DNA of 24,000 bases. Origin: an uncultured Alphaproteobacteria bacterium. Its GTDB lineage: Bacteria > Pseudomonadota > Alphaproteobacteria > Rhizobiales > Pleomorphomonadaceae. The notes beneath the pieces are model-generated. The model ran no database searches. It was not told where the DNA came from and was given only the letters and a program-made list of their open reading frames with translations. Each line of letters begins with the position of its first letter. Position 1 is the first letter of the stretch. Where the stretch lies: assembly GCA_937900425.1 (NCBI GenBank), contig CALCDT010000357.1, forward strand, positions 1-24,000. Direction: 5' to 3'. Made by a program: the position numbers and the translations under genes. Positions 15,970 through 17,051 of this stretch are shown here, piece by piece.

Positions 15970-17051
15970 ATGCCTGTTCCGTCATCCGCCGCGTCCCGTC
16001 CCGGCAGCGGCCCGGCGGCCGTCCTCGTTCCGATCCTCGTCGCGCTTCTCGTCTATATGACCGGCCGCCACATCCCGATCCCCGGACTGGACGTCGAGAT
16101 CCTGCGATTCGACGACGTCCCCGGCACCGAGACCGCGATGTTCTCGATCTTCGCCCTCGGCGAGATGCCGTATCTGACGGTCCTCGCCGTCGCCGAACTC
16201 GTCACCCTCGCTTTTCCGGTGCTGATCCGCCGGCAGGGAACGGGAGGCGGCGGCGCCCGCCTCCTGACGCTGGTGGTCCGTCTCGCCGCCCTCGGCTTCG
16301 CGGCCCATCTCGGTCACGACCTGCTCGTGGCACTCGCGGACACCGGTGCGGTCGCTCCCGACATGGTCGGGTTTCTCCCGGCCGGGATCGCGTGTTCGTC
16401 GGGGCGATCGCCGTTCTGATCTGGCTCGCCGATCGCCTGCCCCTGCCGGGCCTCGACAGCGGCATCTGGCTGTTCGTCGCCTTCGGCGAGCTTTCGGCGG
16501 CGGCGGAGAGGTTCGGGGAGTTGTCGCACGTCGTGCGGTCGGGCTTGGCGAACGGAGGGGACGTCGTCTTCCTTCTCCTCCGGCTGAGCATCCCGGTCGT
16601 CGTCCTGGTCTTCCTCACGCTCGCCGTCCGTCGCCGGGCGGGGGCGGAGGGGGGCGAGGCGTCGGTTCTCTGGAGCAAGATCCTGCTGTGGCCGATGTTT
16701 CTCGCCCTGACCATCGGCTCCTACGTCAACGGCGCTCTTCTGAGCTTCAACGTCACCTCGCTGGTCCGCGGATTGCCGAACATCACCGTCCTCATGGTGC
16801 TCCTGATCCCGATCGTCGTCTTCTGCTACGGCCAGGCCTATCGCGAGCACGGCCGCCGTCCGGCATGGCCGTTGCTCGTCGTGGTCGCGGCGGTCGAGGC
16901 ACTTCTGCTGCTGCTGTCCGACCTTGTGTCCTACGCGACCCCCTCGTCCTACTCGGTCGGCGTGACCGCCCTCGCGCCGATCGTCGTGGTGGTGGCCTGC
17001 GTCGTGATCGCCGCATCCGGCCGGGACGGGGTCACAGTTCCCGCGCGTTGA
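15970..17051 (+). pseudogene. Compact, highly divergent SecY-like 10-TM protein interrupted by a frameshift near 16390-16392. It is a pseudogene, a sequencing error or a split gene.
   Basis: Frame-1 part (ORF 15856..16419): LVALLVYMTGRHIPIPGLDVEIL and FSIFALGEMPYLTVLAV parallel SecY TM1 (IGSFIPIPGID) and the TM2/plug region (SIFALGIMPYISASI). Frame-3 part (16392..17051): FVGAIAVLIWLADRLPLPGLDSGIWLFVAFGELS parallels SecY TM4-5 ([29 protein letters not shown]). Joining I-A|V-F needs one extra G in gcgtg. The start could be 15913 or 15970. Confidence 0.6.

Follow-up and report, generated by a model that had tools for sequence, protein, structure and literature searches.

We have analysed a 24,000-nt stretch of alphaproteobacterial DNA, referred to here as the window, and the gene located at 15970-17051 can be identified with high confidence as a compact SecY paralogue of Alphaproteobacteria. 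The overall explanation in which we have good confidence is that this gene belongs to a conserved family of compact SecY proteins and that the copy present here is most likely a young pseudogene, its reading frame being interrupted, unlike those of the intact family members. The family appears to be a hitherto undescribed variant of SecY; our literature searches found no description of it.

Identity and surroundings of the SecY-like gene

The gene and its immediate surroundings comprise the following features.

14776-15504, plus strand: DUF1003 gene, upstream and co-directional (Pfam PF06210, 137.8 bits)
15955-15959, plus strand: candidate ribosome-binding site GAGGA, 10 nt upstream of ATG 15970, proposed from the sequence
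ATG 15970 to stop 16417-16419, plus strand: ORF1, from the list of open reading frames
15970-16395, plus strand: 5' portion of the compact SecY-like gene (residues 1-142), with TM1, the shortened plug region, TM2b, TM3 and the first third of TM4
GTG 16392 to stop 17049-17051, plus strand: ORF2, in the -1 frame relative to ORF1
16393-16397, plus strand: frameshift site, where TGT (16393-16395, ORF1) and TTC (16395-16397, ORF2) share base 16395
16395-17051, plus strand: 3' portion in the -1 frame (residues 143-360), with the rest of TM4, TM5-TM10 and minimal C4 and C5 turns
16396-16419, plus strand: out-of-frame ORF1 tail SSGRSPF and stop, with no homology to the family, whose members continue FVG.TA.LIWLA
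17032-17991, minus strand: ypfJ-type zinc metallopeptidase gene, convergent (Pfam Zn_peptidase PF04228, 367.5 bits)
18215-21466: carB, near the SecY-like gene

The original prediction held that two consecutive ORFs in different frames together give the layout of a SecY protein, and this is borne out by profile searches. Joined at residues 141/142, ORF1 and ORF2 encode a 360-aa protein that matches Pfam SecY (PF00344) significantly, at 41.1 bits (gathering cutoff 32.2 bits; E 1.9e-10), over residues 59-221, a region which covers the junction. Searched separately, ORF1 and ORF2 score 18.0 and 15.3 bits, respectively, both below threshold, and the match is therefore significant only in the joined product. 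Against the NCBIfam equivalog model for housekeeping SecY, TIGR00967, the joined product scores 42 bits and does not reach the cutoff of 253.6. Since PF00344 is passed while TIGR00967 remains far below its cutoff, the product is homologous to SecY without being the housekeeping protein.

HMM-guided alignment to E. coli SecY also reproduced the motif pairings from which the layout had been proposed: HIPIPGLD with FIPIPGID of SecY, SIFALGEMPY with SIFALGIMPY in the TM2/plug segment, LIWLADR...GIWLFVAFG with LMWLGEQ... in TM4-5, the TM7-like segment with IILFPAT, and the TM10 segment. The start at 15970 is backed by N-terminal alignment with homologues (MPVPSS... here, MPIPAR... in family member P0008), and ORF2 aligns to the ends of intact homologues and, at profile level, to E. 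coli SecY up to residue 421.

The SecY-like gene neighbours DUF1003, ypfJ and carB and does not lie in the spc ribosomal-protein operon. This neighbourhood, together with the low TIGR00967 score, fits the earlier suggestion that it is an extra copy rather than the housekeeping secY. Its 20-nt overlap with the convergent ypfJ (17032-17051) and its co-orientation with the DUF1003 gene (14776-15504) had both been described correctly. The YpfJ protein of the window is 73-76% identical to Methylobrevis proteins and 69% identical to that of Hartmannibacter, which places the source organism in the Hyphomicrobiales and bears out its alphaproteobacterial origin. When neighbours and phyletic pattern were compared, as had been recommended, intact relatives of the SecY-like protein were found across Hyphomicrobiales and Rhodobacterales but DUF1003 and YpfJ were not conserved alongside them: DUF1003 is absent from every other family locus in tblastn searches, and ypfJ adjoins no family member other than the copy in the window. 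DUF1003, a small ORF described below and ypfJ are thus context and not conserved partners of the family. Scans of the SecY-like region for Rfam families, tRNAs, promoters and terminators returned nothing.

Other features of the window were also recorded. Between the DUF1003 gene and the SecY-like gene, positions 15590-15775 of the plus strand form a strongly structured element, with a minimum free energy as RNA of -103.6 kcal/mol (z = -8.8 relative to shuffled sequences). A perfect 15-nt inverted repeat, AAGGAGGTGAGACGC (15610-15624 and 15742-15756), closes the element and surrounds inner hairpins. The small ORF (TTG, 15626-15694, 22 aa) lies wholly within it, with its Shine-Dalgarno sequence in the outer stem, and because of this location it may not be a gene. 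The element has no Rfam match and no second copy in the window; an sRNA, a type-I-toxin-like mRNA and a MITE are the candidate identities. Positions 7000-9000 form a low-GC island (0.49-0.54, as compared with ~0.70 elsewhere) with a DUF3800 ORF at 8229-9080, and the island is probably horizontally acquired DNA. The window also encodes a sulfotransferase (PF03567), a GT4 glycosyltransferase, a class I/II aminotransferase and a DUF1499 protein; the ORFs listed with these genes are 13431-14123 (minus), 22407-23549 (plus), 9862-12579 (minus) and 3997-5880 (minus). Several long ORFs in other strands or frames have no Pfam match and are probably shadow ORFs of high-GC sequence.

A family of compact SecY proteins

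Relatives of the joined product are numerous. An exhaustive phmmer search of 1.84 billion cluster representatives gave 521 matches at E<=1e-3, 80 of them at E<=1e-10. Among the best 150 of the 521, most are intact proteins of 340-380 aa which align from residue ~20 to residue ~350 of the query, across the junction, with 25-39% identity. Query residues 19-348, for example, align with residues 12-340 of member P0003 at E 8e-34, and the same holds for dozens of other proteins. Such depth of search was necessary, as a word-index protein search retrieved only ORF2 of the window with the query and few members with the family alignment. Orthologues are thus not uniformly degraded, and intact homologues, whose existence had been left in doubt, are readily found. 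The search with the query sequence found no orthologue of more than 40% identity in GTDB species representatives or JGI metagenome contigs.

A 64-sequence family alignment, A1, was used to define the group. Individually, 59 of the 64 members match Pfam SecY, and the A1 profile aligns to E. coli SecY over residues 18-421 at E 2e-52. In a neighbour-joining tree built without bootstrap, canonical SecYs form one clade and the query falls among the compact sequences.

The family differs from E. coli SecY by a set of deletions. No counterpart exists in the family for E. coli residues 58-68, ~11 residues in the N-terminal plug region, and the linker from TM1 to SIFALG accordingly spans 19 residues in the window's copy and a median of 20 in the family, as compared with 32 in E. 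coli. Likewise absent are E. coli residues 253-277 of the C4 loop (~25 residues), the C-terminal tail and, from the tip of the C5 loop, residues ~342-363, a stretch of ~22 residues to which R357 and the GIRPG segment belong. The cytosolic loops, C5 included, are therefore trimmed as originally proposed, C4 being ~25 and C5 ~22 residues shorter than in E. coli SecY. A GIRPG-like motif is lacking in 107 of the 109 matches of 300-389 aa and present in 12 of the 17 matches of at least 410 aa.

Universal SecY residues are retained, namely P36, P38, G39, S59, A62, L63, P67, L153, G165, P242 and Y287. Three further residues characterise the family. E76 in TM2b, W167 in TM5 next to pore-ring I187, and W241 in TM7, equivalent to E. 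coli F286, occur in 62-63 of the 64 members and are absent from 12 canonical SecYs, where Q, S and I/L/F, respectively, are found; the window's copy has all three. Such conserved family-specific residues argue, at the level of sequence, for purifying selection on the family.

These features bear on the possibility that the locus is a randomly decaying duplicate of housekeeping secY. Two observations would fit it: the frameshift, and a C-terminal half so diverged that the Pfam model misses it. Nevertheless, the three deletions and the family-specific invariant residues recur in hundreds of intact relatives, canonical SecYs occupy a separate clade in the tree, and identity to canonical SecY is only ~17-22%; random decay is thereby refuted.

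The predicted structure agrees with the assignment of a ten-TM SecY fold made from the sequence. AlphaFold2 run on A1 gave a model with pLDDT 88.3, pTM 0.88 and ten long TM helices, and the top 35 Foldseek matches in the PDB are all SecY/Sec61 (best E 6.6e-8; query-normalised TM-score 0.59-0.63). In the model TM6 (196-227) turns straight into TM7 (229-259), and the plug region is predicted as only two 4-residue helices. Mapped by sequence, the pore ring of the window's copy comprises E65 (at the I82 position), L69, I166, V170, V233 and V339. By the same mapping the pore-ring columns of the family are hydrophobic (V/L/I, F/L, F/L, L/W, A/G/P and L) and bulkier than canonical.

The compact family occurs in Hyphomicrobiales and Rhodobacterales, with members in Ochrobactrum, Brucella species formerly placed in Ochrobactrum, Phyllobacterium, Aliihoeflea, Mesorhizobium, Aquamicrobium, Shinella, Rhizobium, Paracoccus and Pikeienuella, and further members in Terrihabitans, Rhizobium sp. 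Leaf262, a Methylocystis MAG and R. leguminosarum (a 48-member cluster). WP_112903728.1 is an intact member from R. leguminosarum. The distribution of the family is accessory and patchy and includes chromids and a conjugative plasmid; among the replicons that carry the gene are Shinella megaplasmids of 1.5-1.9 Mb and a 258-kb conjugative Sinorhizobium plasmid. Source annotations name the members 'preprotein translocase subunit SecY' or 'hypothetical protein'. Two members are damaged: the Mesorhizobium zhangyense copy (L014 5980-6672) is truncated N-terminally, leaving residues 136-357, and the Pikeienuella MAG copy (L018 776-1499) has lost residues ~64-207 with a change of frame. These are independent pseudogenes of the family.

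Family neighbourhoods are heterogeneous and include HxlR, an ECF sigma factor with NrsF, AsmA, parE, CspA with RTX-type proteins, and a GTA-like cluster. Recurrent neighbours are lineage-local only and none is present in the window. A 120-aa protein with four TM segments and no Pfam match is encoded just downstream at eight loci (L006, ~6990-7361; L007, L009, L010, L014 and L027-L029). In the Ochrobactrum/Brucella/Mesorhizobium group its gene abuts or overlaps that of compact SecY, and the protein may be a partner of compact SecY specific to this lineage. DKNYY lies upstream at eight loci, a HEAT-like protein is found at six and YcxB at five. No secA2, asp, secE or secG-like partner and no glycosylated serine-rich substrate is encoded in the window or at ~30 related loci, and at the ~30 loci no glycosyltransferase or serine-rich adhesin gene lies beside the family gene. 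Neither a dedicated motor nor accessory genes accompany the family gene, which stands by itself.

At one locus, L003, a compact SecY-like gene (8001-9074) lies on the opposite strand inside a GTA-like head-tail cluster of a metagenomic contig, between the portal gene and DUF6107/prohead protease, a single case among the loci. The family has no meaningful PADLOC or PHROG match, and a scan of viral contigs with the family found no relatives. A role in defence or in phage or GTA biology was therefore dropped.

The interrupted reading frame

Sequence at the junction locates the lesion. Frame 1 reads ...FLPAGIAC and frame 2 reads FVGAIAVLIWLADR, base 16395 being common to both, and the recorded ORF1 product (P0002) ends in ...GIACSSGRSPF. 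At the corresponding position family members read ...F.P.G(I/M)A-[T/S/C/A]-(F/L)VG.TA.LIWLA.... Because the two frame readings share base 16395, and from the family alignment, one base is absent within 16393-16396. The original prediction restored a G in the sequence gcgtg, which places Val at the junction. Val occurs at this position in none of 63 members, and the restored base is therefore probably not G; Cys (TGT followed by TTC) or Ser (TCG followed by TTC) would be compatible with the family.

Three explanations of the frameshift had been offered: recent pseudogene, sequencing error and programmed shift. We favour the first with reasonable confidence, namely that a real single-base deletion in TM4 splits the gene and that the copy is a young pseudogene, whereas a programmed shift is unlikely in the absence of a slippery site. 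This copy retains conserved columns (>=70% conservation) as well as the median member does, 0.79 as compared with 0.80, which suggests that the lesion is either young or artefactual. Two substitutions are also evident: Glu occupies the pore-ring position equivalent to I82 in this copy alone among 64 members, and Leu is found where 58 of the 64 members have Gln114. These could reflect either lineage divergence or relaxed constraint.

The gene may alternatively be intact in the organism, the missing base having been lost in sequencing or assembly (an under-called TT/TTT run, for instance) and the error passed on to every public record that stems from those reads. In agreement with such an error, there is a single lesion with no further decay, and the repair that best suits the family puts back a T beside TT. 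NCBI, JGI, ENA and Logan all list the split products, the contigs being 1.9, 2.2, 14 and 56 kb long. Compared as DNA, two of these records show 100% identity to the window, as a single dataset behind them would give; all four sources may go back to the same reads, and coverage of the ENA record is only ~2x (2.1x). Conversely, the same split ORFs come from four sources, different assemblers and four contigs, TT is not an error-prone homopolymer, and pseudogenised family members occur elsewhere. An error is thus the less probable account, one to which we nevertheless allow an appreciable minority chance.

The ENA contig, ERZ795038 (L019; 2204 nt, 2x coverage), matches the window without a difference from 15822 onward. 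The 321 nt at its start, which would correspond to 15501-15821, match nothing in the window; they stem either from a strain variant with another upstream junction or from a chimeric assembly.

Bypass of the shift in vivo, either by programmed -1 frameshifting or through two separately translated ORFs whose products form a two-piece channel, is very improbable. ORF2 does begin with a GTG of its own, 28 nt ahead of the stop of ORF1, so that coupled re-initiation would be conceivable. Read-through would need a -1 shift, yet direct reading of the sequence at GCG TGT TCG revealed no X XXY YYZ slippery heptamer and no long, potentially stimulatory homopolymer, and programmed frameshifting was rejected. 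In addition, no other family member is split here, the intact homologues reading straight through, and the break falls inside TM4 (model helix 135-156). Each piece would be left with a partial helix, and a two-piece protein is therefore unlikely. A young pseudogene thus remains the preferred reading of this copy.

Relation to known SecY systems and possible function

Housekeeping SecY (E. coli; PDB 5abb and 5nco) and the compact family share the ten-TM, two-half fold, positive-inside topology, pore-ring positions mapped by sequence as hydrophobic and a series of signatures, comprising IPxPG at the end of TM1, SIFALGxxP in TM2b, GxG in TM5, Pro in TM7 and Tyr in TM8. In contrast to housekeeping SecY, the compact protein is ~80 residues shorter, without C4, C5, the C-terminal tail and part of the plug, it possesses E76, W167 and W241, and its gene lies outside the ribosomal-protein operon.

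SecY2 of Gram-positive bacteria, part of the SecA2-SecY2-Asp1-5 system, is likewise a second, non-essential SecY paralogue beside the housekeeping channel, and it works with the SecA2 ATPase. The compact family, however, is alphaproteobacterial and not from Firmicutes, is not linked to secA2, asp or adhesin genes and has lost the loops that dock SecA on SecY.

The shortened plug is shared with prlA and plug-deletion variants of SecY, and the family Trp residues are equivalent to E. coli S188 and F286, both of them prlA sites. Those variants, in contrast, are laboratory alleles of an essential gene with intact docking loops, whereas the compact family is a natural, separately evolving paralogue. 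Changes in the SecY plug and pore alter sealing and ion leak (PMC4271186, PMC8082313).

Roles in SecY have been described for the C4 and C5 loops, the plug as well as the pore ring, the loops docking SecA, the ribosome and FtsY (PMC8082313). As these docking loops are lost, intact members of the family would most likely be motor-independent. They would act as membrane conduits or insertases on the SecY lateral-gate scaffold, would keep the hourglass core and would possibly use the housekeeping SecE as a clamp, and some of the sealing done by a full-length plug may have passed to the bulky aromatics found at the lateral gate and the constriction. This mechanism is the most economical reading, although we hold it only tentatively. 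Stated more generally, it is possible, if short of probable, that the family constitutes a third kind of SecY in Alphaproteobacteria, separate from both housekeeping SecY and Gram-positive SecY2, and is either a motor-independent gate for a dedicated class of small membrane or secreted proteins or a regulated leak, with Trp residues at the pore and lateral gate replacing the plug seal.

Intact members might instead represent a SecY-derived scaffold that no longer conducts polypeptides and serves as an ion or small-solute channel, a lipid-facing groove protein, or a regulator or decoy which would compete for SecE/SecG or for agents that exploit SecY. Loss of the motor-docking loops and shortening of the plug are consistent with such a change, as are the patchy accessory distribution, on chromids and a conjugative plasmid, and the occasional pseudogenisation. 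Furthermore, plug and pore-ring mutations in the housekeeping secY of Methylobacterium create a chloride leak (PMC4271186). By sequence mapping, however, the pore ring of the family is hydrophobic with bulkier residues (F/L/W) and gives no hint of a polar ion path, PADLOC, PHROG and viral-contig searches gave no match or relative, and no conserved partner indicates roles of this kind. The non-translocating alternatives, regulator and decoy included, are held about as tentatively as the motor-independent conduit or insertase, which is kept as the most economical reading for intact members.

SecY is usually viewed as a channel that works only with a ribosome or SecA docked on its C4 and C5 loops. 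A natural SecY without these loops and with a shortened plug is a direct test of the bare SecY scaffold, and intact members are found in genetically tractable bacteria, namely Rhizobium leguminosarum, Shinella, Paracoccus and Ochrobactrum-type Brucella. The label 'preprotein translocase subunit SecY' is misleading, and both labels in current use hide the family. As the window's copy is probably dead, its value lies in pointing to this family, which would add a new branch to the known bacterial Sec paralogues.
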